Shown here in pieces: positions 1 through 59,263 of a stretch of DNA of 64,000 nucleotides. Numbering within the stretch: position 1 is the stretch's first letter; each line of letters begins with the position of its first letter. The notes under the pieces are model-generated. The model was not told the DNA's origin. It ran no database searches and was given only the letters and a program-made list of their open reading frames with translations. Source of the DNA: Octopus vulgaris (lineage: Eukaryota); assembly GCA_951406725.2 (NCBI GenBank), contig OX597817.1, positions 162,626,001-162,690,000 on the forward strand. Reading direction: 5' to 3'. Both the position numbers and the translations under genes were made by a program.

Positions 1-157
1 CCGTCTAGGGGATGCAACTCCACCTTTTTTAAATCTCAAAAAAAAAATTTACCATCATTTTTTTCCATTTTTTTGCTATTTTTGGGCTATAACTCTCTAA
101 AAATGCTTTATAGTTATTTCCCTTACAAACCTGAGCAACGCCGGGCGATACTGCTAG
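1..157 (+). mobile_element. 3' part of a non-autonomous Helitron
   Basis: Ends ...GAGCAACGCCGGGCGATACTGCTAG|T; same family as 42956-43344 and 56633-57011. Confidence 0.8.
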
Positions 158-39646: not shown

Positions 39647-39898
39647 CATCATCATTTAACATCCGTTTTCCATGCTATCATGGGTTGGACGGTTCGGCCG
39701 GGGTCTGGTAAGCCATGGAGGCTGCACCAGGCTCCAGTCTGATTTGGCAGTGTTTCTACAGCTGGATGCCCTTCCTAACGCCAACCACTCCGTGAGTGTA
39801 GTGCATGATTTTTACGTGCCACCGGCACAGGAGCCAGAGCAGGCTGGCAAACAGCCACGATCGGTTAGTGCTTTTACGTGTCACCGGCACGGGTGTCA
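39647..39898 (-). mobile_element. (GAT)n-tailed retroposon (family D) interrupting the ZNF-A coding repeat
   Basis: GGTTGGCGTTAGGAAGGGCATCCAGC core. Other copies lie near 4456, 4989, 7740, 13734, 14560, 22762, 23065, 24790 and 44280. Confidence 0.9.
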
Positions 39899-41368
39899 AA
39901 TATCACAGCAAAATGTTTTCTCTCCTGTATGTATACGCATATGTTGAGTAAAGTTACTATTCTGAGAGAATGATTTACCACAGATATCACAGTGATATGG
40001 TTTCTCCCCTGTATGAATACGCTTGTGGTTCGTTAAGACACTATTTTGAGAGAATGATTTACCACAGATACGACAGTGATATGGCTTCTCCCCTGTATGA
40101 ATACGCTTGTGTTTAGTTAAGCCGCTATTTTCAGAAAATAATTTACCACAGATATCACAGTGAAATGGTTTCTCTCCTGTATGAATACGTTTGTGTCTAC
40201 TTAATCCATTACTTTCTATGAATGACTTCTTACAAATATCACAATGAAATAGTTTCTCTCCTGCATGTATACGCACGTGCTTAGTTAAGCCACTATTTCG
40301 TAAGAATGATTTATCACACACATGACACTGATACAGTTTCTCTCCTCTATGCATATGTTCGTGTTGAGTTAAGCCACTATTTTCAGAGAATGATTTACCA
40401 CAGATATCGCAGTGATATGGTTTATCTCCTGTATGCCTATGCACATGTTTTGTTAAGTCACTGTTTCGGAAGAATGATTTACCACAGATACGACAATGAT
40501 ATGGTTTCTCTCCTGTATGAAAACGTACATGTTTAGTTAAGTCACTACTTGCAGAGAATGATTTACCACAGGTATCACACTGATATGGTTTCTCACCTGT
40601 ATGCATACGTATGTGCTTGGTTAAGTCACTATTTCGAAAGAATGGTTTACCACAGATACGACAGTGATATGGCTTCTCCCCTGTATGTATACGTTTGTGA
40701 TGAGTCAAAACAGTTTTCTGAGAGAATGATTTACCACAGACATCACACTGATATGGTTTCTCTCCTGTATGAATGCGTTTGTGAGTAGTTAATACACTTC
40801 TTCGAGAGAATGATTTACCACAAATATCACAGTGAAATGGTTTCTCCCCTGTATGCACACGTGTGTGTTCAGTTAAGTCACTATTTGTAGAGAATGATTT
40901 ACCGCAGATATCACACCGATATGGTTTTTCTCCTGTATGAATAAGTTTGTGTCTAGTTACACCACTACTTTTAGAGAATGATTTACCACAGATATCACAA
41001 TGATATGGTTTTTCTCCAGTATGAATATGCTTGTGAGTTGTTAAACCAGAATTTTGAGAGAATGATTTACCACAGATATTGCAATGAAATGGTTTCTCTC
41101 CTGTATGAACACGTTTATGCCTGCTTAACTTAGCACTTTCAGAGAATGATTTACCACAGATATCACAGCCATGTGGCTTCTCTCCTGTATGAATATGTTT
41201 GTGAGTAGTTAAGGAACTACTTACAGAAAATGATTTACCACAAATATCGCAGTGAAATGGTTTCTCACCTGTGTGAATACGTACGTGTTTACTTACGTCA
41301 CTTTTTTGCAAAAATGATTTACCACAGATTTCACAAAAAAATGGTTTCTCTTGTAAATTTTTTGACAT
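39896..41368 (-). CDS. Tandem C2H2 zinc-finger protein (ZNF-A), 17 fingers, truncated in the 18th
   Basis: 490-aa ORF with 28-aa CxxC...HxxxH repeats and TGEKP linkers; no effector domain seen. The stop is supplied by an inserted repeat. Confidence 0.95.
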
Positions 41369-42955
41369 TCTTCAAAGAATATAGAAACCCTGTCTACTGT
41401 TATCGACTGTAATCTTGATTGATATTTAGAGGCTATGAACACCTTTAAAAATTTATTGTAGCTTAACTGAAAGGCAAAAAGCACCAGTCCATGAGGTTGA
41501 GAAATGTTGCTATTAATCTGAGTTCAGAGCAAATAATTCACAGTAATTCCATCATAGATTAATAGCATGTCTTGTGTAACATTTTCCTTTAGACTTTAAA
41601 AGGTTACATATATTGAAGATGTATCCAATGTAAAAATAAATTCTGTTGTGTTCATGTTGTCTGTTAATCTGTAATAGAAAAGAAACAGTATAAGAAACAG
41701 AGGAGAGATCAATATGGAAATTTACCTACATACTGATAAACAAATTACACAACACAGATGGATGGATAGACAGAGGAATGGATGGATGGATAGATAGGTA
41801 GGTAGAGAGATAGATAGATAGACTGGTATAGATATATTGCTATTAGAATTGGAAAAGGCTGGGGAACTTTTGTCAGTGAGACTTGTATTATTTAGAAAAA
41901 GTGACAGAAAGAATATTGTGAAGTTGTCAACACTTCAGACAGGGACTTTTTCAGTCTCAAAAAGATAGTGGGGGAAAACAACAACATACCCCAGAAGTTT
42001 ATACACTGTAGGATATCTTTCAATTTATACGATAAACTTTATAAATTTTAAAGTTCAATATTCCCATGACGTAAGTTAGAGATATCGACATGAGTTATTC
42101 AAATAATGTACCTTATATATTTCTTTATAATTGTAATCTATGTCGTTTGAAAGGTTTTTTATATAGAATTTCATTAAAAGATATCCATTCTCCTGAAAGT
42201 TATGATGTAAAAAATGGGCTCGTGTGAATTTTCCGAAAGTCCTCTTCCCACTTCACCATCCCGGGTTCTTTTGCACATTTTTTTGTTTTCAGATTCGTTT
42301 CCTACACATTTTTTACGCGTATTACACTTTTTTTTTGTGGCCGGGTGTTAAACTAGATATTAACCGAGTTTTCTATTTCTTTGAAAGTAATAAATGTCTC
42401 TCATGAAAAATTCTCAAAAATTCTGCAATGCGTCTTCTATCAACTTACAATTTAACAGTGGACGGCCCTAGTTTTAGTGAAATTCTGCCATCAACATCGC
42501 ATTCAATAACAAATCAAAAACCTTATTCTAGACCTTTCCCTACAATGTAGGATAATATAAAAAGCAATGCAAAAATAGTTTGTACTACTGAAGGTGTAAT
42601 TAATAAAAGACTGGTAATCATTTCCAAGAGTTTCAACTTGACAATTTATGTAGAGTCTATGAATCACCCAAACAAATGTTTCTCATCACATACAGTTCTT
42701 TTCATTCCCTATCCGGACCACCAGTGAATTTTATTTCAAAGGATATACATTAAATCATCTTTAACAAAAAGAATTATTAAAGATAAACTAAATGCACGAA
42801 TAAATATTATTAGATTCGATTCGTTAGAGTATATTTTTTTGGTTTAAAATGTGTTTAATAAGTTATTTCAGAACATAATATAATTGTGAAGAGAGGTGTG
42901 TTATTAGCAACATGAGAAAATGTTTTCAATTAACAGATCTGCAATTTATTTTATA

Positions 42956-43344
42956 CTAGCAGTATCGCCCGGCGTTGCTCGGGTTTGTAAGGGAAATAAC
43001 TATATAAGCATTTTTAGAGAGTTATAGCAAAATGCATTAAAAATGGGGGAAAATGAAATTATGGTAAATTTTTTTTTAAATCGTTGACTCATCGTAGACA
43101 TTTTTAGAGAGTTACTTCCCTTATATAATAGCGAAAATAATGCACTAAAATGAAAAAAAATGATGGTAAATTTTTTTTAAATCGTAGACTCATCGTAGAC
43201 GCGCGCTAATACCCAGAAGGGCTCGATATGAATCACGACTATAAGATACCCGGTTTTGGTTAAACTGCACCGCAAAATGTGGGAGTAAAGAATCTAAATC
43301 GAAGGAGACAGACACTCACACAACTTCTCTTTTATATATAAAGA
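42956..43344 (-). mobile_element. Non-autonomous Helitron in the ZNF-A intron
   Basis: A|TC...CTAG|T termini, subterminal CCCG..CGGG hairpin, no TSD. Confidence 0.88.
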
Positions 43345-43581
43345 TTACATGTAACAGGGGAACGTTTTCTTTTTCTTTTTTTATTTTCCTTCTTCAAAAA
43401 TAACAAGTATTAAGTATTATTCTTTGGTAAAAATCTTCAAGGCAATAACGACGAGTCAATATTTTTGTTCCGGTGTGTCTCTATGTGTATTGAATTACTG
43501 TATGGTTGAAGGGTTCACGAAATAATTCCGTATTTACACACATTATTACAGATATATTCAAGTACATCATTGTCAACTTAC

Positions 43582-43735
43582 CGTTTCTAATATATCATTA
43601 GTGAATCAGTTTGATGACCAAACTCCAAAAGAAATTAATCGCGTTGTTAAATTGGGATTTTCAAAGGTTTTATTCTCATTTATTCTACGTTAACGTTACG
43701 ATTGCTTCTTCACTCTTTAGACATCAATTCGTATC
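43582..43735 (-). other. Putative non-coding first exon of ZNF-A (intron 43581-41669; exon 2 starts at 41668)
   Basis: Homologous to 44884-45036 and 56266-56391. Ends G|GTAAGT; conserved acceptor cAG|ATTAACAGACAAC. The 5' limit is a homology limit, not a mapped TSS. Confidence 0.7.
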
Positions 43736-44883
43736 TGTCTCTATTTTCGATTTATCATTTAGTTGCAAGAATGGTTAGTGTAGTCGAATTCGTTTGTATG
43801 TTGTTCTAGATTAATAACAACAACCAACTTTCTTTTTGGCGCGATCATTTATTTACATATTATTGGGTTGGTGCATAATTATTGCGGCTTTTTTTTCCAA
43901 CAAATTTTATTCAACAAAAACAATAATAATATTTAACTAGAAAAGCACTCGGAGAGCGCAGACCTCTGCCAAACTAGCAGGAGCAGCACTACGACGACCA
44001 CCACCACAACTATCATACCACTATCACCACCATCACAACCACCAATATCATCAGCAGTATCGTCATTGCTTCCACCTCAACCACCATCAACGTTATCATG
44101 ACAGTTACCTTGACAGTCACTTTCACCACCACAACCAGTATAACCATTACAATACCACCATCACACAACTAACAAGATGACAAAAGGCCGAGATGCCTGG
44201 TGCCTTGTTGTACTCAAGAAGACCCATACTTCGCAGCAGAAGTGTTAAGATCAGTCCCTCTGGTGGTGTAAAGCTCTGATGTCAGTATCACATAAAAGCG
44301 CCAATGCAGTGCCACGTAAAAGCGTCTGTGCGATGCCTCGTGAAAGTGCCCGTGTGGTGTCACATACAAGCACCCGTGTGGAGCCGCGTAAAAGCACTCA
44401 ACACTCTATAAAGTGGTTGGCGTTAAGAAGGGCATCCAGCCATAGAAACCATACCAAATCAGACTCCAGTCTGATTTGGTATATTTTTTGTGGTGTGTGT
44501 GTGCGTGCGTATCTATGAGTTTTCCGCATTTTGATGCTGAACTGATGTTTTTCTTCCTGTTTTCTTTCATTGTTCCTCTGTTTCCATTTTTATTTTATTG
44601 AAATCTGTGCGCTATCCGGAACTTCCATTAATAGATAATATTTGATTGGACACCCTCAATCCGCATTCGTTCGTGTGATTTTCATTTCGACGTAGGTTTT
44701 ATATTCACTTATAAATCTCAATAAAAATTAGTACATAGTTTGAAAAAAAAATTAAAACATAGATATATTTAATAAATATTAAAACAAGGGGTAGCTGTAG
44801 TATTCTAATATACACGCGGATATATTTGTGATGGAAGGTGCATTTAAGGACATCAGGTCGTGTTCATTGGCTCAATGTGACAA

Positions 44884-45036
44884 GATACGAATTGATGTCT
44901 ACAGTCAGGAAGCTACCCGAACGTTAATGCCGTAGAATAAAGTGGATAAAACATTTGAAAATCCCAGTCTAACAACGAAATAATTTCTTTAGGAGTTTGG
45001 TCAACACCCCGATTCACTGTTGACATGTTAGAAGCG
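44884..45036 (+). other. Putative non-coding first exon of ZNF-B (exon 2 starts at 46941)
   Basis: Paralogous block GATACGAATTGATGTCT...G|GTAAGT; acceptor ttcAG|ATTAACAGACAAC at 46940/46941. Confidence 0.7.
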
Positions 45037-45389
45037 GTAAGTTGACAAAGATTTACTTGAATAAATCTGTAATAATGTATGTAAGTAGCAGAATTAATGT
45101 GTTAACCTTGCAATCATGCAGTATTTCTGTGGAAGTATCGTCTTTTTGCTGACCTTTTTTTGAAGTGAGGGTGATACTTAAATGTTGATCTATTTTTTGA
45201 AAACAAAAAAAAATAATAATAATTATAATACCTGACTGTTACAGGTGATATAAAGGAATTACAGATCTGCTAATTGAAAACCTTTTCCTGTTGCTAGTCA
45301 CACAGATATTCTCTTCACCGCTACATTATAGGCGCATTTTAAGCAATAACAAACCTACAAGTTTATTCTATCGATCATTATAATATTTA

Positions 45390-45855
45390 CTCGTATCTTC
45401 TACTTCTTTCAGACGTTAGTCTATGGCCATGCTGGGGTACCGTCTTGAATCATTTTTTTTACCAATGAATCGACCCTAATACTTTTTTTTTTAAAGTTTG
45501 GTACTTCTGGGCGAAAGTAAAGAATACGTACACCCGGTTTTTAGTTACGTTGTAAACTGGTGGTGTATATATTCTTTACCTACGCCCTTCTATCGGTTCA
45601 TTCGCCGAACCGCTAAGTTACGGGTACGTAAACACACCAACACTGATTGTCGAGCGACGGTGGAAGACACACACACACACACACACACACGTGTGACGGG
45701 CTTCTTTCAGTTTCCGTCTAACAATTCTACTCACAAGGCTTTGGTCCGCCCTAGACTATAGCAGAAGACACTTGACCAAGGTGCCTTACAGTGGGACTGA
45801 ACCCGGAACTATGTGGTTGGGAAACAAGATTCTTACCACAGCCACATCTGCCCCT
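45390..45855 (-). mobile_element. SINE family A, diverged, in the ZNF-B intron
   Basis: Matches family A; boundaries approximate. Confidence 0.8.
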
Positions 45856-46456
45856 ATATGTTGTATTATTATTATTATTATTTTATTTGTAGTCGTGACG
45901 TTTTTCAGTCTTCAAATATCATTAATTGTACACGATGGAAATCTTGCTTAATTTCTTCTAACCAGTTGAAGTTTTTCAAAAAATGTACTTCTGATGAGAA
46001 AACCGCATTATTTTTCTTAGAGATTAATAGTCCAAAAGTTACAAACATTTACATTATTTTAGCCAGTCGAAGCCTTGATTGCCCGACATAGCGGAAGTTG
46101 TGAATGTTTGTCCCCGTGCGAACAGCAGAAACCTTTGCGTGATCTCTCTTCCAAAAAAGTATACATTAAAAAGGATGGCACAAAGTACTACAGCACGGTT
46201 TTTTTTCCTCACTTGAGATAGGCCCAAGTGGTTTCCACTTGTTGAGTGATTGATTATCAATAACATTGAAATACAGACAGTCTTCTTCCAAATAATACAA
46301 GTCTTGCTAACGCAGACACCCACCATCTTTCTACAGCTCTGATATGTGTGTGAGTGTGTGTGTTAACATTCCATGGCTTTGTTTGGAGTGAAACAGTGTT
46401 ACATTGACATTCCATATTGACATTACAACTAGTTGTACTGTATTAAATAATTTGTC

Positions 46457-46860
46457 GGATCTTTTCGGTTTGAACGGCAGTTTTTTAAAATAACTTCCAC
46501 GTAACTAAACACTTTTAAACTTCGTATACTAGTAAAATGTGTTTATAAAACATCTTTTTCTCTTGGTTTTATTGAGAAAATTCTATAGTTTGTAAGATAT
46601 TTGCTGGGTTTTTTTCCTGCAATTTCAACCAATCAATGACGTCTATTGAGGTGAAAACATTCTGTGCCGTATGAACATGTCCCTCGTTTAAGAAACAGAT
46701 TGGGTTTATTTACATTTGTGAAGAAAAAAAGATACCCTTCCCCCTACCCCTAACCCTAAAACAAATTGAAATGCAATAGATCGATACTAGGGTCATAATT
46801 ATGGGTGACAATTTCATATGACACTGCTAGAAAAAACTGCCGTTCAAACTGAAAAGGTCC
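46457..46860. mobile_element. Related MITE in the ZNF-B intron
   Basis: TIR GGATCTTTTCGGTTTGAACGGCAG; TSD aatttgtc. The empty site is visible in the ZNF-C paralogue (~57515). Confidence 0.9.
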
Positions 46861-47235
46861 AATTTGTCTATCAATATAGAAATGTAGTAAAATTTCCATG
46901 TTTATTTTCTGTTTCTTACACTGTTTCTTTATTATTTCAGATTAACAGACAACATTGGCATACAGGATTTATTTTAAATTGGATACACCTTCAATATCTA
47001 ATCTTTTAAAGTCTAAGGGAAAATGCTATGTATGACAGATATAACCCTATTGCTATTAATTGATGGTGGAATTACTGTGAAATATTTTCTTTAATAGCAA
47101 CTGTCTGATGCTTTTTCCTTTTAATGGAACTTGATTAAATTTTTGAAGGTGTTTACAGCACCTCTTAGATGTCAATGAAGATTACAGTTCATAACAATAG
47201 ACTGAGATTTTATATTCTTTGAAGAGCTGTTCAAA

Positions 47236-48108
47236 ATGTCAGAAAATACACCATACCTCTGTGAAATCTGTGGCAAAACTTTCACTGAAATGATTCTGTT
47301 ACATAGACACATGTGTATTCATACAGGTGAGAAATTTCACTGCGGTATCTGTGGTAAATCATTCTCTGCCAATAGTGACTTAACTAAACACCTTCGTATA
47401 CATACAGGAGAGAAACCATTTCACTGTGATGTCTGTGGTAAATCATTTTCTTTAAATAGTTCCTTAACTAGACACAAACGTCTTCATACTGGAGAAAAAC
47501 CATATCATTGTGATATCTGTGATGAATCATTCTCCGAGAGCGCTAAACTGAGTAGGCATAGACGTATTCATACAGGAGAGAGATTTCACTGTGACATCTG
47601 TAGTAAATCATTTTCTGAGAGCACTAAACTAAATAGACATAAACGTATTCATACAGGAGAGAAGCCATATCACTGTAATTTCTGTGGTAAATCATTCTCT
47701 TATAACAATGTTTTAACTAATCATAAACGTATTCATACGCTGGAGAGACCGTATCACTGCCATTTTTGTGATAAATCATTCTTGCGAAATAGTGACTTCA
47801 CTAAACATGTCCGTATGCATACAGGTGAGAAACCGTTTCAGTGTGATACTTGTGGTAAATCATTCTCTGCGAGTAGTGACTTAACTAAACACAGACGTAT
47901 GCATACAGGAGAAAAACCGTTTCACTGTGATGTCTGTGGTACATCATTCTCCAGAAGTAGCAGCTTATCTATACATGTACGTATGCATACAGGAGAGAGG
48001 CCATTTCACTGTGATATCTGTGGTAAATCATTCACTCGTAATAGTATTTTAACTAACCACAAACGTATTCATACTGAGGTAAATCATTCTCTAGAATTAG
48101 TGACTTGA
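47236..48108 (+). CDS. Tandem C2H2 zinc-finger protein (ZNF-B), 10 fingers
   Basis: 290-aa ORF of C2H2 repeats ending in a frameshifted tail EVNHSLELVT. Confidence 0.95.
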   Translation: MSENTPYLCEICGKTFTEMILLHRHMCIHTGEKFHCGICGKSFSANSDLTKHLRIHTGEKPFHCDVCGKSFSLNSSLTRHKRLHTGEKPYHCDICDESFSESAKLSRHRRIHTGERFHCDICSKSFSESTKLNRHKRIHTGEKPYHCNFCGKSFSYNNVLTNHKRIHTLERPYHCHFCDKSFLRNSDFTKHVRMHTGEKPFQCDTCGKSFSASSDLTKHRRMHTGEKPFHCDVCGTSFSRSSSLSIHVRMHTGERPFHCDICGKSFTRNSILTNHKRIHTEVNHSLELVT

Positions 48109-48206
48109 GTAACCACAATCATATTCATACAGGTGAGAAACAATATCTGCAATATATGTTATAAATCTTTTACTTGACAAAGCAACTTAACTTCACATAT
48201 ATCTAT

Positions 48207-48427
48207 TCCTTTACTACCCACAAGGGGCTAAACACAGAGGGGACAAACAAGGACAGACAAACGGATCAAGTCGATCATATTGACCCCAGTGAGTAACTGG
48301 TACTTACTTAATCAACCCTGAAAGGATGAAAGGCAAAGTTGACCTCGGCGGAATTTGAACTCAAAACGTAGCGGCAGACGAAATACCGCTAAGCATTTCG
48401 CCCAGCATGCTAACGTTTCTGCCTTAC
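48207..48427 (-). mobile_element. Meta-like SINE (family B) in the fossil last finger of ZNF-B
   Basis: 17-bp TSD acttcacatatatctat (48190-48206 and 48428-48444). Confidence 0.9.
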
Positions 48428-48699
48428 ACTTCACATATATCTATCCTTATAAAAGTGTGACTGTGTTTTTGTTAGAATTGATTACCACTAACAACCACTG
48501 CCAACATTTCAAGGTCTTTTTCATTGCTAAATCATGGATTAGCCTTATGGACTTAACAACTATCAGTGAACTCATGACAAACTATATACTCACCATGGTT
48601 TCATTTTTGTGATAGTGTTTTACAGCCAGATGCCATTCCTTATGTGAACTCTACTAATAACCTCTTAAAATCAAATCAAATCAAATCAAATCAAAACAA

Positions 48700-49322
48700 A
48701 TCAAAATAGATGAACATCAATGGAATTTGTATCTTTGTGGTACCAGTGCCGGTGGCACACAAGAAAATCATCCGAACGTGGCCGTAGCCAGTACCGCAAT
48801 GACTGGCCTCCGTGCTTTGGCGCCAGCCTCATCTGGCACCTGTGTCGGTGGCACATAAAAACACCATCCGAGCGTGGCCGTCCGCCAGCCTCATCTGGCA
48901 CCTGTGTCGGTGGCACATAAAAAACACCATCCGAGCGTGGCCGTCTGCCAGCCTCGTCTGGCACCTGTGTCGGTGGCACATAAAAACACCATCCGAGCGT
49001 GGCCGTCCGCCAGCCTCATCTGGCACCTGTGTCGGTGACACATAAAAAAACACCATCCGAGCGTGGCCGTCTGCCAGCCTCGTCTGGCACCTGTGTCGGT
49101 GGCACATAAAAACACCATCCGAGCGTGGCCGTCTGCCAGCCTCGTCTGGCACCTGTGTCGGTGGCACATAAAATCACCCACTACACTCTCGGAGTGGTTG
49201 GCGTTAGGAAGGGCATCCAGCTGTAGAAACACTGCCAGATCTGACTGGCCTGGTGCAGCCTTCGGGCTCCCAGACCCCAGTTGAACCGTCCAACCCATGC
49301 TAGCATGGAAAACGGACGCTAA

Positions 49323-49352
<30 letters not shown>
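48700..49352 (+). mobile_element. Family D retroposon with an expanded internal ~62-bp tandem array (48822-49170)
   Basis: About 5.5 near-identical units GCCAGCCTC(A/G)TCTGGCACCTGTGTCGGTGGCACATAAAAACACCATCCGAGCGTGGCCGTC; (GAT)n tail. Confidence 0.9.
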
Positions 49353-49353
<1 letters not shown>

Positions 49354-49794
49354 GATACACATACTGTATTTGGACACTTGCTCTGTGTTGAAATTTATTA
49401 TATTTTAAAAATAACTTGTATAACTATAAATGTATTTGAAATGGACAGAAGATATAGAAGTGTAATAACAAGCTGCTGTGACTATATTTTTTATCATCAC
49501 AGTGCTGAAATAACATATTGTGATATTTTAAATAAAAGCATAATCATATATTTTCTCAGAGATCAGTAATATCATTGTACAATTGTTATGCTATCAATAA
49601 ATAAAGTGTAAAAGAGAATTGTTCATCACAGCATAATAGAATATATATATGAATTTGTGTGTGTGTCTTTCTGTGTCTCTATATATACATACATACATAC
49701 ATATATGCAGCATTTGTAAAAATGAATAGAAATATGTATCAGTATAAAGTGCCATTGAAGCATGATTTGACCATGCAAAAGGCACTTTGCATAA

Positions 49795-51235
49795 TGCTTG
49801 CAGTCCGGGTTACAAACTGTTAGCATTACTCAAACTGTTAGCATTACCATGTACCCACCCCAGATGGTGCTGTACCTCATAGTTTTGCTGGTTCAGTTCC
49901 CCTAGCCAGCATGCTAATTGTCCCTCCAGGTTCCTCAGTGTCTTCAGCCACTTGAGTGCTGCATGGTCCATTCTGATGATAAAGTGGGAACTATACAGGT
50001 ACGGATAGAAAGAGTCAATGCTCTTCATCACCAGCAAAACCTCCTTACGAGTTGGTCAATAGTTTCGCTCTGGTGGACTAAACTTTTTGCTGTTATATGC
50101 CACCACATTTTTGTCACCCTACCTCCGACACAGTACTCCACTGATAACATGGCTATTGGCGTCACAGTCCAGTATAAAAGGCTGGCTTGGGTCCAGGTAT
50201 GGCAACACAGGAGAACTTATTAGCACCTGTTTGAGTTTGTCAAAAGCGTTCCATGTCATGGCAGTCCATTCAAACTTTTATCTCTTTCCCAACAGCTTGT
50301 GCAATGGTGCGGTCACCATCACAAAGTACCTGTCATAGGTACACAGCCCTAGGAATCTCCTTGACTCGCTTGCACAAGTAGGAACTGGCCAATCTCCCAC
50401 TGCTGCCACCTTCTCTGGATCAGTATGGACACCGTCTTCTCCCACAACATGTTTCAAGTATCTTACTATCTTCTGGAACAGATAGCATTTCTTCGGGTTC
50501 AACTTGAGGTTTGCAGCTCGAAACTTCTTAAATACCTCCAATAACCTCTCCAGTTCCTGATCAAATGTTTGACCAAATACAAGATAGATGAGGGTGACCT
50601 GCCAGTGTAGGCCTCCAGTACCCAATCCATGAGGTGCTTGAAAGTTGCAGGGGCGTTGCACAGGCCAAATGGCATTACATTGAACTGCCACAAACCCCTT
50701 CCATATGAAAATACAGTCTTCCCCCTACCTTTTCTGGCAACCTTGATTTGATGGTATCCAGCTTTCATATTCAAAGTAGAGAATTACCAGGCCCCTGCTA
50801 AAGCATCAAGTGTGTCGTCAATTCTTGGCAAAGGATGTGCATCCTTCACTGTCGCATCATTTAGTGCTTTATAATCCACGCGGTATTTCCCTGTACCATC
50901 TTTCTTCTGCACTAAAACAACTGCTGAAGACCAGGGACTGTTTGAGTTTTCGACTACTTCCTGTCATCAATATTCCTCCATCACTTCTTCCATTTCCTGT
51001 TGCTGAACAGGGGTCATCCTCCGAGTCGGTTGTTTTTACCACACACAAAAGCTATTTTCCCTGTTAACCTTCCTCTGGTATTGCTGCACCTTTTATATGT
51101 CCATAGCTTACACCAGGTACATCTTATGGAGTTTCTCATGGAGGCAGTGCCAGGTGATTGAGACCTTTAATGATATATTGTGCTTGTGTAGACCTGTCAA
51201 GCCAAAGGAGATCGTAGTCATGACCAATGCCAGTG
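49795..51235 (-). mobile_element. Gypsy/Ty3 LTR-retrotransposon pol relic (RT and RNase H)
   Basis: MKAGYHQI, QFNVMPFGLCNAPATF, LKLNPKKC and FIIRMDHAALKWL in disrupted frames. Confidence 0.9.
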
Positions 51236-51258
51236 TGTGTGTGTGCTGGCATATATGA

Positions 51259-51492
51259 TAATGCGGCGAGCTGGCAGAAACGTTAGCATGCCGGGTGAAA
51301 TGCTTAGCGGTATTTCGTCTGGCGCAACGTTGTGAGTTCAAATTCCGCTGAGGTCGACTTTGCCTTTCATCCTTTCGGGGTCGATAAATTAAGTACCAGT
51401 TATGCACTGGGGTCGATGTAATCAACTTAATACCTATGTCTGTCCTTGTTTGTCCCCTCTATGTTTAGCCCCTTGTGGATAATAAAGAAATA
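51259..51492 (+). mobile_element. Meta-like SINE (family B)
   Basis: TSD ggcatatatga. Confidence 0.88.
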
Positions 51493-51660
51493 GGCATATA
51501 TGAATATTGGAAAAAAGGTTTAGGAAATGATGGGAAGTATTTTTCAAAATGATAATGATATGTATAAAATTATTTTTAAGTGTCTGTTCTTATTTATTTG
51601 TTGTGGTTGGGTCTATATTTAATTGTTGTTTATACTTGTTGATAAATTGCCATTCTTTAT

Positions 51661-52075
51661 TTAGTCTTGTTGATTGAAGGAATCCGAACATTTGTAGAGG
51701 GGAAATATTTTGAAATTTGGTAAGATCATTCCTGCACAGGTTGCAATGTGACTGCTTAAAGGAATTTTCCTTGTGCTTTTATCTTGGACCTGTTGGCGAT
51801 GGGATGTCATTCTGTTGCATAACGATCTGCCCGTCTGACCTGTGTAATTATGTTGGCAACCATTGCATGTGATTACGTAGATCAGGTTTTCCATGTTGCA
51901 GGTGAAATTGGACTGGACTTTGGAGGTTTGGCCAACTTTGAATTTTAATTCTGGCCCCCTCAATTTAGTAACAGCAAGTGCCGCACTTCTTGTGCATTTT
52001 GTAACCATTCGATTGGGGGTTTCTTTGTGCATTTTTGTTCCAGTGAGAATGAGTTTTAGTGTTTGGGGCTGCCTT
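51661..52075 (-). mobile_element. Penelope-like element fragment (GIY-YIG endonuclease)
   Basis: FTC..NLIYVITCNGCQHNYTGQTGRSLCNRMTSH is a PLE-type GIY-YIG with the CxxC insert. Confidence 0.82.
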
Positions 52076-55000
52076 TTGCTTTTGATGATTTTTTTCTTTC
52101 TAAGATTCATGGTTTCCTGCTCTCTTGTTCTGAATGTTCTAAGAATCCATCTGGCCAGCTGCTTGCATCTCATTGCCAACTTAGTGAAATGCACAAGGAT
52201 GCATTACTTCTCATGTCAACGTTCAGCTCATGTACTGATTATGAATCTAGAACTATGATCCCTCCAGGTCCAGTGTATTTTATCTGCCGATAGCATTAAA
52301 CAGCTTGTTATTGCTTCTTGTCTCAAAGTCTTTGATTCCAGACCTTTTAAGTTTTAGCCACTGATCACACAAGTCATAACCAGTTCCAGCCACAATGCCA
52401 GATAACAACACCCATCCAACAGCATTACAGCAATCTCTTTCTTCGTCGCTACCATCTTCTTCTTAATGACATCAACAACATCTCTACATACACAGCTCAA
52501 CCAGCAACACTGCACAGGTTCCAACACAGCAGTTTGTGAATTACTTCACCATGGTTAACAGCGAATATACAACCTGCGAGAATTCCTGTACAACTAACCC
52601 ACACAGCAGCATTATAGCCACAACTTCATATGACACGTACCACACCAGCTCGGCATCTTCGCTGCAACTTCTTCATACAATATTTCAACTACTGTGTACA
52701 ATTGACTATGAACTGGTATCTCTCATTTCTTGTATCTGTGAACATTTGTAATTTATTTTATCATTCAGTTGTGGTAGCAATTGAATAATATTCTTAAGGC
52801 TGCAATTTACTCACATGCAATATCTTTCAGAGCTTATCGCTCATTCAATTCTCAACCAAATTGGAAACTGTTAACATTGTTGAAGAGAAATAGTCCCTAG
52901 TTATATTTTGGCATAAAAAAATTAAGATTTGGTCCAGTAGAAAAAAGTTTGCGTCAAAATTTCTAGCCACATTATAGGAGAGTAAGTAACGCCTCCAATC
53001 AAGTTTAGATCTAAATAACTTTTTTATTTTAAAAGCATAATATATTTATCTTAGCTTCAATGATAGAAGAAAGCATGAGGAATTTCATAGTTTTGGTCCC
53101 AGGCAACAAAAATTTGTATCAAAAAAAGTTGAGGTAAAATATCCTGAAAAAAAAATATAAGGCAAAAAATTGGATTTAAGTATAATTAACTTTTTTATTT
53201 TACAAACAAACTATATTTTAATTAAGCTTAAATGATAGAGCTCAATTCAAGGAATTTCATGGTATCAATCTCATGCAGTGAAATTTTAAAAGAAAACGAT
53301 TACGAGTGTTAATTTCTCAAATTTGAGGGTGATATAGTTCTATACTTTTATGAATATAGTTTTATAAGGGGACTTTTAATATGTGCCATTGAGATAAGGA
53401 AAAAATTATCATCTTCACTGCTAATTAACACATTATTAGTTAGCACAACATGACCTAGAAAAAAAAATGGATTACATAAGAAAATGTGAGCAAGAGAAAT
53501 AATATTATTAAGATTATAAACTTGGAAAAGTACAGGACAAGTTATTACACTTGGAAAAGTCCAGAACAGGTTATTACAACTGGTAAAGTACAGAACAAGA
53601 AAAATTTTTACTTTATCATTCCCTTTTCAGTTGACAATCCAGAAAGAAAATTAATTTGATGACAAAAAAACTAAATTATAAAAGTGATAGCTAAAGCAAG
53701 TGAGCTGGTAAACTCATGGAGAAAATAGGGTTGATTTATTGTTGAGAACTTGGAAGCTGCTGCGATTGACGAAATGGTAAACTCAACAATATATTCAACC
53801 ACTACCGTTGTTGAATGATAATTACATTTGAAAAAACACTCCTGCACGTCAATATCTATCATTAGACATCACAAAGATCAGAAGTGCACCATGAATTTTA
53901 AATATCTTAGTCAAATGAAAGAGGATCATAGAAAATAGCACATGATCTGAAATTAACGAAACCCTTCTAAATCTAGACTTAATATTCTCTGCAGCTTCTT
54001 CACGATCTGCTAGACTGATATATTTATGTGCCATGCAGTTAAAGAGAAATTACTGAAATAACTCGTTACTGATTTTATCCCACTTTGGACACCATTTCTT
54101 GGGAATTGAAAATGATCAAATTAGACCTTAGTATGAGGGGGAAAAAACTGAGTTGGGATATTAATTGTTAAGCATGAAAAATTCCAGATATTTTATTGGC
54201 AACTTCAATTACAATTGGGTTCAAAGTTGAATAAAAAGTTTTTGAAAGAAAGTGCCTTGTGGGATGACGTCAGCAGCTGGGGAGCTGACCAGAAGAGGAG
54301 GGGGCAGGAGTGACGCGCAGGCAGGCAGGGCAGCATTGGGCTTTTCAATCAAGGTAGCTGAGCGAGACAGACATGTGAGCTCATTGTTAAGGTAGGGGAA
54401 AAGCAGCTGCTATTTCTAGTGTTCGGGTTGGGCTGCGTGAAAGGGTGCATTACCACTGAGAGGTCTCCTTATTTCAAATATCTCACATACACCACACCTG
54501 TCACTTAAGTTTCAAAGTTTCTCAACTTATACAACTATGCTGACCAATTTTTACTCCGAAAGACGATGTAACAGCACAAAATCATGGTGTGACATTCAAA
54601 ATGTCGAGGAAATGGGGGTGGGGAATAACAAGAAAGAAATCAGAAATGACCCATTTTGCCTCACTAACCCAATTTGCCCCACCCTCTTCATGCCTATAAG
54701 TTCTTCATTCTTTAGACTCTGTTTCGTATCATGTCACACTGAACATGAGCTTGTCTTTAAATGCACTTTCCATCTCAAATATATCTGTGTGTATTAGAGT
54801 ATAACATTTACCTTTAGTTTCAATATATATTAAATAATATATCTGGGGCTTGTTTTAAATAATTTGATGATTCACAATAAGAGAAAAGTCGAAAAATAAT
54901 ACAATATCAAAATCATTTAATTACACTAAAAGAATTATTGTAGACCACGACAGTCCTGGAGTTTTATGTTCTGCTAGCTTTGCAGACATAAATGAAAGAA

Positions 55001-55320
55001 ACTAATCAGTTTTACGTATTAATCGGTTGTTGCTAAATGTAGACCCTCGAGGACTTCGGTCAATCCACTGCACTGGATAGATACAAAAGAAAGACATGTA
55101 AAACTGAACGAGCATTAAATACAAATGTTTCTCTACAAAAATTATGATTTGTATTCCTATATTGATTTAATATCGTAACTCGGAAATAAATACTCAAATG
55201 TAAAAAGCAGAACGTGGAGTTTACAATCATACTTTCACAACTATCATATAAGAGGGATCACCGATAATTATTCAGTTTACGCTTGTAGAATCAAAACGTA
55301 TTGGTGACAGTATTGATAAT

Positions 55321-55729
55321 GGCAATCTTTCGTCTCTAGTAGACCTTGCCGTCGATTTCCGTAAAAAACTGGGCTTGCGGGAACTTTTGAAGTAATGAGA
55401 GCGAAAGAGACTAAGAGAAAGCGATTGTATGACGAGGGAAGTTCTTTTGAAGTCACCGTGCATGGGAAGCATTGATGTACATGTGGGTGTGTGTGTGTGT
55501 TTGTTGGGGTGTGGGAGACAGACAGTATGTTGTGTAAGTGAAGTGCTTCTCTTAGTGTGTGTGAAGAGACAGAGTAATGTGTGAAAGAAAGAGATAACTG
55601 AATTTTTTTACTCGGTGTATGTGTATATGTATGTATATTACTTCAAAAGTTCCCGCAAGCCCATATGTAAAAAAAACAACAATTTTTACGGAAATCGACG
55701 GAAAGGTCTACTAGAGACGAAAGATCGCC
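55321..55729. mobile_element. MITE with ~75-bp TIRs
   Basis: GGCAATCTTTCGTCTCTAGTAGACC...GGTCTACTAGAGACGAAAGATCGCC; TSD ttgataat/ttgataac. Confidence 0.88.
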
Positions 55730-56265
55730 TTGATAACTTTGATTTTAGTTTGTTTTTGTTTATTTACTATATTTTCTTTCTTTTTTTTTTTTGATGTGTA
55801 CTTATAGCTGCAAGTCTGTTTTATGAAAGGAAAGAAGAAAGCAGTAAGAAATGATAACTAGATAGATAACCAGTCAGAAATAAAGATTTATGTGTGAAAG
55901 ACACAAATAGATGGTTTTATTAGTCGAGTAAATAATCATTTTCTCCAAAGAAAAGCTGGAAATCAGTTGTAAATTACAGATAAAGATGACGAGGAGTGAC
56001 AAAAGTGAGTAAAATATCAGACAATCTACTTTGTTGTGTTTAGTTATTTCCCTTTACTTTATATTATTTTATTAACGAACGTAAACTGAACAATTGATGG
56101 AAAAATGTTAAAAACGATGAGAAAAAATTATAAAATGTATATTATTTAGAACATCTTATATATACATATATGTGTGTGTGTATACATATGTGCATGTATA
56201 TATGGATGAATGTAATAAGACTCAACAAGGAATATCTTTGAAGAGTACGTTAAAAATAGAGGCAA

Positions 56266-56391
56266 ATACGAATTGGTGTCTAAAGAGTGAAGAAGCTCTC
56301 TGAACGTTAATGTAGATTAAACGTTTAAAAAGCCCAGCTTTAACGACCAGGTAATTAATTACTTTAAGACTTTGGTCGACACACTGAAAAG
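56266..56391 (+). other. Putative non-coding first exon of ZNF-C (exon 2 starts at 57592)
   Basis: Paralogous block ATACGAATTGGTGTCTAAAGAGTGAAGAAGC...AG|GTAAGG; acceptor ttcAG|ATTAACAGACAAC. Confidence 0.65.
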
Positions 56392-56632
56392 GTAAGGTGA
56401 CAAAAATTTACTCGTATAAATCTCTAAATAACATGCGTAAATAACAGAATTATTAACCATGAAATAATTCTATACTTTTCTTTGTTCCTTTTTTTCTTCT
56501 TTTCTTTCTTTTGTTAAATATATTCTTGTTCATATTTTGAATAAAAACCATCTCTCATTACAAAGAGTAATTACTTCCAAACTGAAATGTTGATCTGATA
56601 TTTTGAAAAAAAAAAAATCCCTGACTGTTACA

Positions 56633-57011
56633 TCTTTATATATAAAAGAGAAGTTGTGTGTCTATCCCCTTCGATTTAGATTCCTAACTACTCCCACATT
56701 TTGCGGTGCAGTTTAACCAAAACCGGGTATCTTATTAGTCGTGATTTATATCGAGCCCTTCTGGGTATTAGCGCGCGTCTACGATGAGTCTACGATTTAA
56801 AAAAAAAATTACCATCATTTTTTTCCATTTTAATGCATTTTTTCGCTATTATATAAGAGAAGTAACTCTCTAAAAATGTCTACGATGAGTCAACGATTTT
56901 TAAAAAAATTTACCATAATTTTTTTGCTATTTTTTGGCTATATAACTCTCTCAAAATGCTTATATAGATATTTCCCTTACAAACCCGAGCAACGCCGGGT
57001 GATACTGCTAG
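56633..57011 (+). mobile_element. Non-autonomous Helitron in the ZNF-C intron
   Basis: A|TCTTTATATAT...CTAG|T termini with hairpin; closely similar to the 42956-43344 copy. Confidence 0.88.
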
Positions 57012-57036
57012 TGTGATATAAATTAAATATCATATC

Positions 57037-57475
57037 TGGCGAACGTTGGAAATAGATAGCACCAAGTTGGAATTTCTCCGTTTTGACGAGTATTTTTCAA
57101 ATTTTTTTTCTACGGTGGCCTTGGAAATGCTTTCTGTAAAGTTTTAGCAAAGACATTTGCGAAAACTATAGAAGCCTTTTCGGTTAAAAAAAAAACAAAA
57201 CATTTTTCAGACGAAAAGGTGTGATTTAAGGGAGATTTGACGGTTGTTTCTAGCGTATCAAACAACCAGTAAAGTTGATAAAAATAAATTTTCAAACGTT
57301 TTTTTCGTAGAATGAGTTTATGCTATTAATGAGACCATTTTTCTAAAAAAAAAAATTTTGTTAAAAAAATACTCCAGATCATTTCCAAGGGCACCGTAAA
57401 AAAAAAAAAATTTGAAAAATTCCCGTTGAAACGGAGAAACTCTAACTTAGTACTACCTATTTCTGATATCTGCCA
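57037..57475. mobile_element. MITE with ~90-bp imperfect TIRs in the ZNF-C intron
   Basis: TTTCTCCGTTT...TACGGTGGCCTTGGAAATG is inverted as ATTTCCAAGGGCACCGTA...AAACGGAGAAA. Confidence 0.75.
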
Positions 57476-57958
57476 CATTACATTGACATTACAACCAGTT
57501 GTACTATGTTATATAATTTGTCTAACAATACAGAAATGTAAAATTTTCTTGTTTATCTTCTGTTTCTTATACTCTTTGTTTATTATTTCAGATTAACAGA
57601 CAACGTTGGCATTCAGGATATATTTTTACATTGAATTCATCTTCGATATTTGTAATCTTTTGAAGTCTAAGGGGAAATTTTATATATGACATATAACCCT
57701 ATTGCTATTAATCGATGTTAGAACTACTGTGAAATACTGGCTTTAAATAGCAGCGTTTCTCTACCTCACTATCTGATGCCTTTCTCTTTGAATGAAACTT
57801 GATTAAATTTTTGAAGGTGTTTACAACACCTCTTAGATATCAGTGAATATTACAGTTGATAACAATAGACTGAGATTTTATATTCATTGAAGAGGTGTTC
57901 AAAATGTTAGGAAAAACCCCCATATCACTGTGAAATCTGTGGAAAATTTTTCTCTAAA

Positions 57959-59263
57959 ATGATTAAATTACATAGCCACATGCATATTCACACAGGGGAG
58001 AAGCGATTTCATTGTCATATCTGTGATAAATCATTCTCTACAAGTAGTGGCTTAACTAAACATGTTCGTATGCATACAGGAGAGAAACCATATCAGTGTG
58101 ATGTCTGTAGTAAAGCATTTTCTGCCAGTAGCTCCTTAGCTAGACACAAACGTCTTCATACAGGAGAAAAACCAAATCCGTGCGATATCTGTGATAAATC
58201 GTTCTCTGACAGCACAAAACTGAGTAGACACAAACGTATTCATACTGGAGAAAAACCATATCACTGTGATTCCTGTGGTAAATCATTCGCAGGAAGTAAT
58301 GACTTATGGAAGCACATACGTATTCATACAGGAGAGAAACCATATACGTGTGATACCTGTGGCAAATCTTTCTGCCATTCCAATGATTTGACTAGCCACA
58401 AACGTATTCATACAGGCGAGAAACCATACAAGTGTGATATCTGTGATAAATCTTTCTCTCATTCCACTGATTTAACTACCCACAAGCGTATTCATACGGG
58501 TGAGAAACCGTTTCACTGTCACATCTGCAGTAAATCATTCACTGGACGTAGTGCCTTAACTAAACACCTACGTATGCATTCAGGAGAGAAACCATTTAAC
58601 TGTGATGTCTGTGGTAAATCATTCTCTGAAAAACCTAGATTAATTAGACACAAACATATTCATACAGGAGAGAAGCCCTATCACTGTAATTTATGTGGTA
58701 AAGCATTCTCTTACAATGATCTTTTAACTAACCATAAACGTATTCATACATTGGAGAAGCCGCATCACTGCCGTATTTGCGGTAAGTCATTCTTACGAAA
58801 TGGTGACTTAACTAAACATGTCCGTATGCATACAGGTGAGAAACCTTTTCCTTGTGATACGTGTGGCAAATCATTCTCTGCAAGTAGTGACTTGGCTAAG
58901 CATAAACGTATTCATACTGGAGAAAAACCATTCTGCTGTGATGTTTGTGGCAGATCATTCTCCAGAGCTAGCATCCTATCTAAACACATACGTGTTCATA
59001 CAGGAGAGAAACCATATCAGTGTGATATCTGTGCTAAATCGTTCACTCATAAAAGTGTTTTAACTGTCCACCAACGCGTTCATAGCGGGGAGAAACCGTT
59101 TCGTTGTCATATCTGTGGTAAATCGTTCTCTGGAAGTAGTGACTTAACAAAACACAATCGTATTCATACAGGGGAGAAGCCATATCTGTGTGATATCTGT
59201 GGTAAATCTTTTGCTGAAAAACGCAACTTAACTGCACATTTATCTATCCATACAAAAACGTAA
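57959..59263 (+). CDS. Tandem C2H2 zinc-finger protein (ZNF-C), 15 complete fingers plus an N-terminal half finger
   Basis: 434-aa ORF. The paralogous ATG at 57904 is out of frame by +1. Confidence 0.92.
   Translation: MIKLHSHMHIHTGEKRFHCHICDKSFSTSSGLTKHVRMHTGEKPYQCDVCSKAFSASSSLARHKRLHTGEKPNPCDICDKSFSDSTKLSRHKRIHTGEKPYHCDSCGKSFAGSNDLWKHIRIHTGEKPYTCDTCGKSFCHSNDLTSHKRIHTGEKPYKCDICDKSFSHSTDLTTHKRIHTGEKPFHCHICSKSFTGRSALTKHLRMHSGEKPFNCDVCGKSFSEKPRLIRHKHIHTGEKPYHCNLCGKAFSYNDLLTNHKRIHTLEKPHHCRICGKSFLRNGDLTKHVRMHTGEKPFPCDTCGKSFSASSDLAKHKRIHTGEKPFCCDVCGRSFSRASILSKHIRVHTGEKPYQCDICAKSFTHKSVLTVHQRVHSGEKPFRCHICGKSFSGSSDLTKHNRIHTGEKPYLCDICGKSFAEKRNLTAHLSIHTKT

Follow-up and report, generated by a model that had tools for sequence, protein, structure and literature searches.

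Yeast elements of the Ty3 type are tethered to TFIIIB and the TATA-binding protein (TBP), and integrate at a fixed distance from a TATA-like element and in a set orientation. For two further systems, preferences in the choice of the target are described in the published passages on which the present comparison draws. In human cells, the Helitron Helraiser shows an AT preference on the 3′ side, and is enriched 7.3-fold in promoters of genes with high expression and 14.2-fold in open chromatin (PMC4778049). In Drosophila, P elements have repeatedly and independently inserted at the same nucleotides of heat-shock promoters, including those of the multi-copy Hsp70 genes, often near the TATA box, and these promoter hotspots were attributed to DNase hypersensitivity combined with features of the site (PMC1592238). 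Here, a stretch of 64,000 nucleotides of Octopus vulgaris DNA (the window, part of contig C4 of a 2.8-Gb animal genome) is described, in which three C2H2 zinc-finger genes, ZNF-A, ZNF-B and ZNF-C, are found and in which a non-autonomous Helitron occupies nearly the same spot of the first intron in ZNF-A and ZNF-C. The explanation that we favour, with a probability of about 0.62, is that a Helitron family with an oriented target motif inserted independently into a conserved TATA-like site of intron 1, and that this site is hit more often than the same sequence elsewhere, likely by way of open promoter DNA.

The octopus element shares with canonical HLE1 Helitrons and Helraiser the 5′ TC, the 3′ hairpin followed by CTRR, the insertion between A and T (A^T) without duplication and an AT richness that is strongest on the 3′ side (PMC4778049, PMC5876387, PMC11417382). 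Enrichment in active promoters and open chromatin may be a further likeness to Helraiser, the octopus spot being a presumed promoter in a presumed open state. In contrast, what is published for these elements, in the passages compared and leaving the logo figure aside, is AT richness within about 20 bp and no ATAAA register fixed at +7/+8, and those passages do not describe a gene family whose members were hit repeatedly at the same homologous site. P elements resemble the octopus case in having inserted several times, independently, at identical or neighbouring nucleotides. They differ from it in being cut-and-paste transposons of the DDE type, with no orientation bias and segregating in populations, whereas the octopus element is a rolling-circle transposon found in one orientation in paralogues that are 20-35% diverged.

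Two insertions in paralogous first introns

The three genes of the window have in common a homologous, putatively non-coding first exon, a conserved donor (GT at 43581, 45037 and 56392 in ZNF-A, ZNF-B and ZNF-C, respectively) and a conserved acceptor (AG at 41669, 46940 and 57591). The putative first exons with their donor motifs lie at 43562..43736 on the reverse strand in ZNF-A and on the forward strand at 44883..45056 in ZNF-B, head to head with ZNF-A, and at 56253..56411 in ZNF-C. In intron 1 of ZNF-A, a non-autonomous Helitron of the HLE1 type, 389 nt long and belonging to a subfamily of about 380 nt, occupies positions 42956..43344 (reverse strand); in intron 1 of ZNF-C, an element of the same subfamily, 379 nt long and with its 3′ hairpin near 56983-57000, occupies positions 56633..57011 (forward strand). 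Both are sense to their gene, start with TC, end with CTAG after a 3′ hairpin, are flanked by A and T and lack a target duplication. The 5′ half of the target lies at 43345..43357 (reverse strand) in ZNF-A and at 56625..56632 (forward strand) in ZNF-C, and the former contains an unused A^T, the very one that the ZNF-C element occupies. The 3′ halves lie at 42944..42955 (reverse strand), with ATAAA at +7 to +11 from the insertion point, and at 57012..57028 (forward strand), with the TATA-like TATAAA at +6 to +11.

Once the elements are excised, the ZNF-A and ZNF-C sites align without gaps with each other and with the empty sites of D and F, two paralogues that lie further along C4. In this alignment the insertion points stand five columns apart, 237 nt past the donor in ZNF-A and 241 nt in ZNF-C, as a preliminary description of this DNA had reported when it placed one Helitron, in the same orientation, at two points 5 bp apart and about 240 nt past the first donor; its coordinates and junctions hold. 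The homologous site that it considered empty in ZNF-B is indeed empty (45236..45259, forward strand), with a G where ZNF-C has the T of its occupied A^T. Moreover, the elements are, as had been noticed, more alike than their surroundings: 18 of their 374 aligned positions are mismatched (4.8%), against 18% in the best local block of the flanks and 28-32% across the whole flank alignments.

The target motif

The last 28 nt of the element have 18,379 exact matches in the genome and none in a reversed control. In 5,998 of these 3′ ends (32.6%) the next bases are T, then five or six positions of any kind, then ATAAA (T-N5/6-ATAAA). The same motif is found at only 0.70-0.76% of background AT sites in three samples (341 of 48,996; 325 of 42,894; 318 of 45,540), so that insertion sites are enriched about 45-fold. 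Among 63 consecutive copies on contig C1, 26 fit the motif and 12 lie in TA runs, with A at +10 and at +12 in 50 copies each. The TATAAA form accounts for 3,548 matches (counted with a 27-nt anchor), that is about 59% of motif hits against 36-39% in the background; in other words, TATAAA is preferred at targets but not required. Loose contig ends past the 3′ end, taken from four sequencing runs of four organisms (166-241 contigs each), agree at 0.42-0.44 and, read as starting at +2, place ATAAA at +7 in all four runs.

The suggestion of the preliminary description that targeting goes beyond the AT dinucleotide is thus upheld for the downstream side, while the CTGTTACA-like upstream motif that it put forward is not: positions -30 to -4 display no clear preference in 24 copies, and C at -2 occurs in only 3 of 45 copies, 36 of which have A at -3. 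A pattern joining the upstream sequence to the left end has 71 matches against 12 in the control, and of these only the insertions in ZNF-A, in ZNF-C and on contig C6 are tied to ZNF donors, by position. The selected feature of the target that these data support is therefore the downstream ATAAA and not the upstream CTGTTACA.

Both junctions in the window fit the motif. Specifically, the reconstructed ZNF-A site contains it twice, 5 bp apart, with the element in the second copy; ZNF-C has it once, and in ZNF-B it is broken. Two copies in one gene and a single copy in the other explain both the 5-bp offset and the common orientation.

Recurrence in the zinc-finger family

The donor motif of intron 1 occurs 107 times in the genome and 5 times in the control, and 100 of the 107 loci were examined. 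Outside C4, 14 of them were tested, and in 12 the 10 kb fetched include a downstream C2H2 array on the same strand. The homologous site is empty in 69 of the 100 loci, not recognisable in 27 and filled in four, namely ZNF-A, ZNF-C, C6:42565451 and C29:22785012, which involve two subfamilies and three chromosomes. The C6 and C29 elements sit at exactly the position of the ZNF-C element, but are members of a 500-nt subfamily whose middle part is different; the two elements are 6.0% apart and their flanks 21.5%, and the nearest paralogue of the C6 gene, 4.5% apart, is empty. A fifth element, of 391 nt and with one mismatch in the 28-mer, lies on C18 at +16 in a further copy of the module, whose donor the pattern missed and which is thus outside the donor matches; here ATAAA stands at +8. 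Altogether, at least five insertions fall within 16 bp, three at offset 0, one at +5 and one at +16; all obey the motif and all are sense, a single orientation that follows from the asymmetry of the motif.

Three further elements were left out of these counts. One, an insertion of a related family, lies 475-947 nt past the C28:6145444 donor; it conforms to the motif and looks like the A-type site, but the flanking sequences do not align. A degraded element of another subfamily lies about 45 nt past the site on C29 (L369), and an old element common to six C27/C29 loci (the L145 group) lies upstream of the donor; the elements of L369 and of the L145 group are older, truncated at the 5′ end, of another subfamily and also sense.

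A single ancestral insertion, lost from most paralogues and blurred by slippage of the junction and homogenisation of the elements, might account for the exact position common to ZNF-C, C6 and C29. It would nevertheless demand many precise losses, replacement by another subfamily and, in ZNF-A, a 5-bp duplication and a 5-bp deletion that by chance recreated the empty sequence of D and F. In addition, divergence within subfamilies (5-6%) is far below that of the flanks (22-35%), and the flank tree of the paralogues needs four changes, with at least three forced by its starred branches (73 rows, the 27 donor loci without a recognisable site being left out, and a bootstrap that is not fully settled). 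We consider this history scarcely credible.

The preliminary description had also envisaged homology-guided local spread. Under such a history the element would have been copied among paralogues through local hopping or gene conversion. ZNF-A and ZNF-C do lie 13 kb apart with elements of one subfamily, and a star-like element tree keeps them as possible sisters (approximately unbiased test, p-AU 0.47). Conversion, on the other hand, would preserve the junction, whereas the ZNF-A, ZNF-C and C18 copies use three different A^T positions, and no converted tract appears in the flanks. In a comparison of 41 copies, 27 of which were chosen as best hits to the ZNF-C element, the ZNF-C element ranks only 35th among the nearest copies of that in ZNF-A, and the ZNF-A element 25th among those of ZNF-C; the sampled copy nearest to the ZNF-A element is on C3 (1.9%). 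The different subfamily of the C6 and C29 elements, on other chromosomes, points the same way, and Helraiser is described, in the passages compared, as retransposing without clustering near its donors (PMC4778049). Local spread is thus largely refuted for C6, C29 and C18, and as an explanation of the whole it is very improbable.

The elements of ZNF-A and ZNF-C are supported as independent insertions, made after the duplication of the genes as the preliminary description proposed, by their different sites, by an element divergence far below that of the flanks, by the hits of another subfamily on other chromosomes and by the four changes on the tree. As to their age, the 3′ junction of the ZNF-C element seems unchanged in contigs of two other organisms, where just 19 nt of the element are covered, short of the 31-nt bridging rule; this suggests that the insertion predates the split of the two organisms with the same junction, and is silent on any benefit. 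Among the contigs listed, no joint skipping the ZNF-C element was seen, which proves nothing.

The excess of insertions at the site

About 4.5 million motif sites are expected genome-wide, which gives a rate of 0.13% per site. At the 43 motif sites of the spot, four insertions stand against 0.057 expected (P = 4e-7) and, without ZNF-A and ZNF-C as the discovery pair, two insertions remain at 40 motif sites (P = 0.0014). The exact downstream 12-mer allows a comparison between identical sequences: it is filled 12 times in the genome (three in ZNF genes) and empty 2,264 times (29 in the examined ZNF loci). The filled fraction is thus 3 of 32 in ZNF genes and 9 of 2,244 outside them (odds ratio 26, p = 5e-4), and the difference persists when ZNF-C is removed (odds ratio 17, p = 0.009). 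These figures are conservative in so far as the empty loci include recent duplicates.

An explanation through sequence alone would see in the site an unusually good substrate, owing to longer-range features such as upstream bases, DNA shape or melting, the state of the promoter being irrelevant. It would be in keeping with the confinement of the excess to the spot, where four of 43 motif sites are filled against none of 207 others nearby (p = 8e-4; 4/43 against 1/208 and p ~0.003, by hand calculation, if the related-family C28 insertion is counted against the hotspot), with the obedience of all five insertions, the one at +16 included, to the motif, and with the presence at the C-type site of the A at -3 favoured in 36 of 45 targets. 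Conversely, the site carries the C at -2 that is rare among targets (3/45), and G or T at +12, where A is favoured (50/63). Above all, the identical downstream 12-mer outside ZNF genes is filled 17-26 times less, so that sequence alone falls short; we regard this explanation as unlikely.

Selection is a rival for that part of the excess which lies beyond sequence. The insertions might have been kept since the element alters ZNF expression, for example by bringing its own TATATAAA near the native TATA-like register or by damping an internal promoter. That all insertions are sense, at a conserved and probably regulatory site, and that the ZNF-C junction is seemingly unchanged in the two other organisms, would suit this possibility. 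Orientation is nevertheless already explained by the asymmetric motif, and 69 of 73 sites are still empty, close relatives of a filled gene among them; selection appears improbable.

The site as a putative promoter

The site is conserved in paralogues that are 20-35% apart and reads like a TATA box, resembling an ATATAAAGGG that many paralogues carry about 115 nt upstream of their first donor. A second donor-like motif is found 107-148 nt past the site in 24 of 74 loci, which gives tandem units of about 350 nt. Moreover, the donor regions are rich in CpG, with an observed/expected (o/e) ratio above 0.8 in 86 of 100, compared with 30% of random tiles, and head-to-head pairs, such as ZNF-A and ZNF-B, occur among the ZNF genes. 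From these features we infer that the spot may be the TATA-like box of a duplicated module made of promoter, exon and donor. Along 21.0-23.8 Mb of C29 there is, in addition, a large ZNF cluster whose 5′ regions carry two to four tandem donor-bearing units about 350 nt apart (for example L230, L231 and L233), a candidate system of alternative first exons.

Under the explanation that we favour, an autonomous RepHel element with matching ends would supply the transposase, which might nick at A^T and engage the AT-rich 3′ side as it would its own left end, which bears TATATAAA; ATAAA stands at +8 in some variants of that end. The conserved site would be accessible or transiently melted in the germ line, promoter accessibility being the factor that remains once the motif has been taken into account. 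Like Ty3-type elements, the octopus Helitron is found at a fixed distance from a TATA-like element and in a set orientation. It differs from them in that TATAAA is absent from about 41% of its motif hits and that many hits fall in TA runs, and for this reason an intrinsic preference of the transposase would fit better than a TBP tether. A bolder version, in which the family homes on TATA boxes of active promoters as mimics of its left end, inserts just upstream in the sense orientation, swaps in its own TATA and so repeatedly rewires alternative promoters of ZNF genes, is tentative and rather doubtful.

Several points weigh against independent insertion favoured by open promoter DNA. “TATA box” and “open” are labels deduced from the sequence, and ZNF-A, ZNF-B and ZNF-C themselves are without a second donor-like motif past the site. 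Genome-wide, the lean of the family towards CpG-rich DNA is slight (median 0.70 against 0.60, and 44% against 30% above 0.8, p = 0.022), and the excess is very local: a general promoter-proximal effect would lead one to expect hits at further motif sites close by, yet none of the 207 mentioned above, which lie within 1.5 kb downstream of donors and at which 0.28 insertions were expected, carries this family. The T of TATAAA is missing from the 41% of motif hits just mentioned, and the commoner +7 register is not a base-for-base match to the left ends of these subfamilies. Finally, the excess is inflated by those sites in the genome-wide denominator that arose after the burst, and the numbers are small, with two or three events once the discovery pair is removed.

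The Helitron family and its likely transposase source

Measured by the exact 28-nt 3′ end, the copy number of the family is at least 18,379, and several subfamilies have this end in common. The elements of ZNF-A, ZNF-C, C6, C29 and C18 all start with TC. The 3′ end is CTAG after an 18-nt GC-rich hairpin that ends 11 nt before the terminus (-5.5 kcal/mol, z -2.24; 4 of 200 shuffles are equally good). The next base is T in 30 of the best 30 family matches, 27 of which are preceded by A, and in 62 of 63 consecutive copies on C1. The element is, in other words, an ordinary non-autonomous canonical Helitron (HLE1). HLE2 (Helentron/Helitron2), defined in the passages compared by short terminal inverted repeats and T^T insertion (PMC11417382), was rejected, given insertion at A^T and ends of TC and CTAG.

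A search confined to the Rep-side family yielded 150 scored PF14214 matches as RepHel candidates. In 20 stretches fetched around such matches, 18 have a related 3′ end past a long open reading frame (ORF), and 12 align to the last 36 nt of the element at 86%; most have a TC..TATATAAA start about 6.1 kb upstream of the related 3′ end. Autonomous RepHel elements with matching ends are thus the likely source of transposase for the subfamily. Among 15 ends of the autonomous type, five fit the target motif and eight lie within TA runs. Many RepHel elements of about 6.1 kb (L374-L384, L388-L391), whose ends are nearly identical, contain open frames 1,100-1,740 codons long and were possibly active recently.

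Some copies of the family also directly precede, or sit within, the left ends of other Helitrons (L020, L082, L386, L391), as the target motif would predict. Two pairs of loci differ from those described so far. L004 and L018 (C28) have both flanks in common (1.4-2.7% apart) and elements 3.5% apart; L011 and L014 (C2, C27) share 150 nt of 5′ flank at 99% with no common 3′ flank, and were not counted as a second parallel pair. Conversion of the element, parallel insertion or a longer composite element may lie behind both.

Other features of the window

The C2H2 arrays are encoded by ORFs at 39896..41368 (reverse strand, 490 aa) in ZNF-A, 47236..48108 (forward strand, 290 aa) in ZNF-B and 57959..59263 (forward strand, 434 aa from the first in-frame ATG) in ZNF-C. 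In ZNF-C, the ATG homologous to the start of ZNF-B (57904-57960) and the finger array are in different frames, and the frame of the array next has an ATG at 57959; this may reflect a true frameshift or an assembly slip. The array of ZNF-B stops in the middle of a linker after 290 aa (48060-48110), with more finger-like sequence behind it, out of frame. An element with inverted-repeat ends, likely a MITE (miniature transposable element with inverted repeats), breaks the ZNF-C flank directly past the site (57049..57463). Another inverted-repeat element lies upstream of ZNF-C (55321-55729), and similar sequence splits the intron of a C28 paralogue (L105) just before the homologous site. Between ZNF-B and ZNF-C there is a degenerate stretch that we take by eye to be reverse-transcriptase-like (49900-51050), followed by a 170-aa ORF (51661-52173) that presumably resembles a Penelope-type endonuclease. 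At the left edge of the window (39..157, forward strand), outside the ZNF sites, lies the 3′ portion of one more copy of the family.

Implications

The choice of A^T, the AT richness on the 3′ side and the promoter bias of Helitrons are already published. The fixed ATAAA register and a ZNF hotspot of this kind were not found in the literature passages searched, a scope outside which figures, supplements and subscription papers lie, and to that extent are new. Target choice by Helitrons is usually summarised as “AT in AT-rich DNA”; an oriented ATAAA register in one third of 18,379 copies provides a testable handle on target recognition by RepHel, and may explain the nesting into the left ends of other copies. 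The five parallel insertions at one homologous spot show that a Helitron position common to paralogues need not mean common ancestry, which calls for caution when such positions serve as markers. Should the spot be a working promoter, this would represent a recurring route by which a transposon may alter an expanded zinc-finger family.

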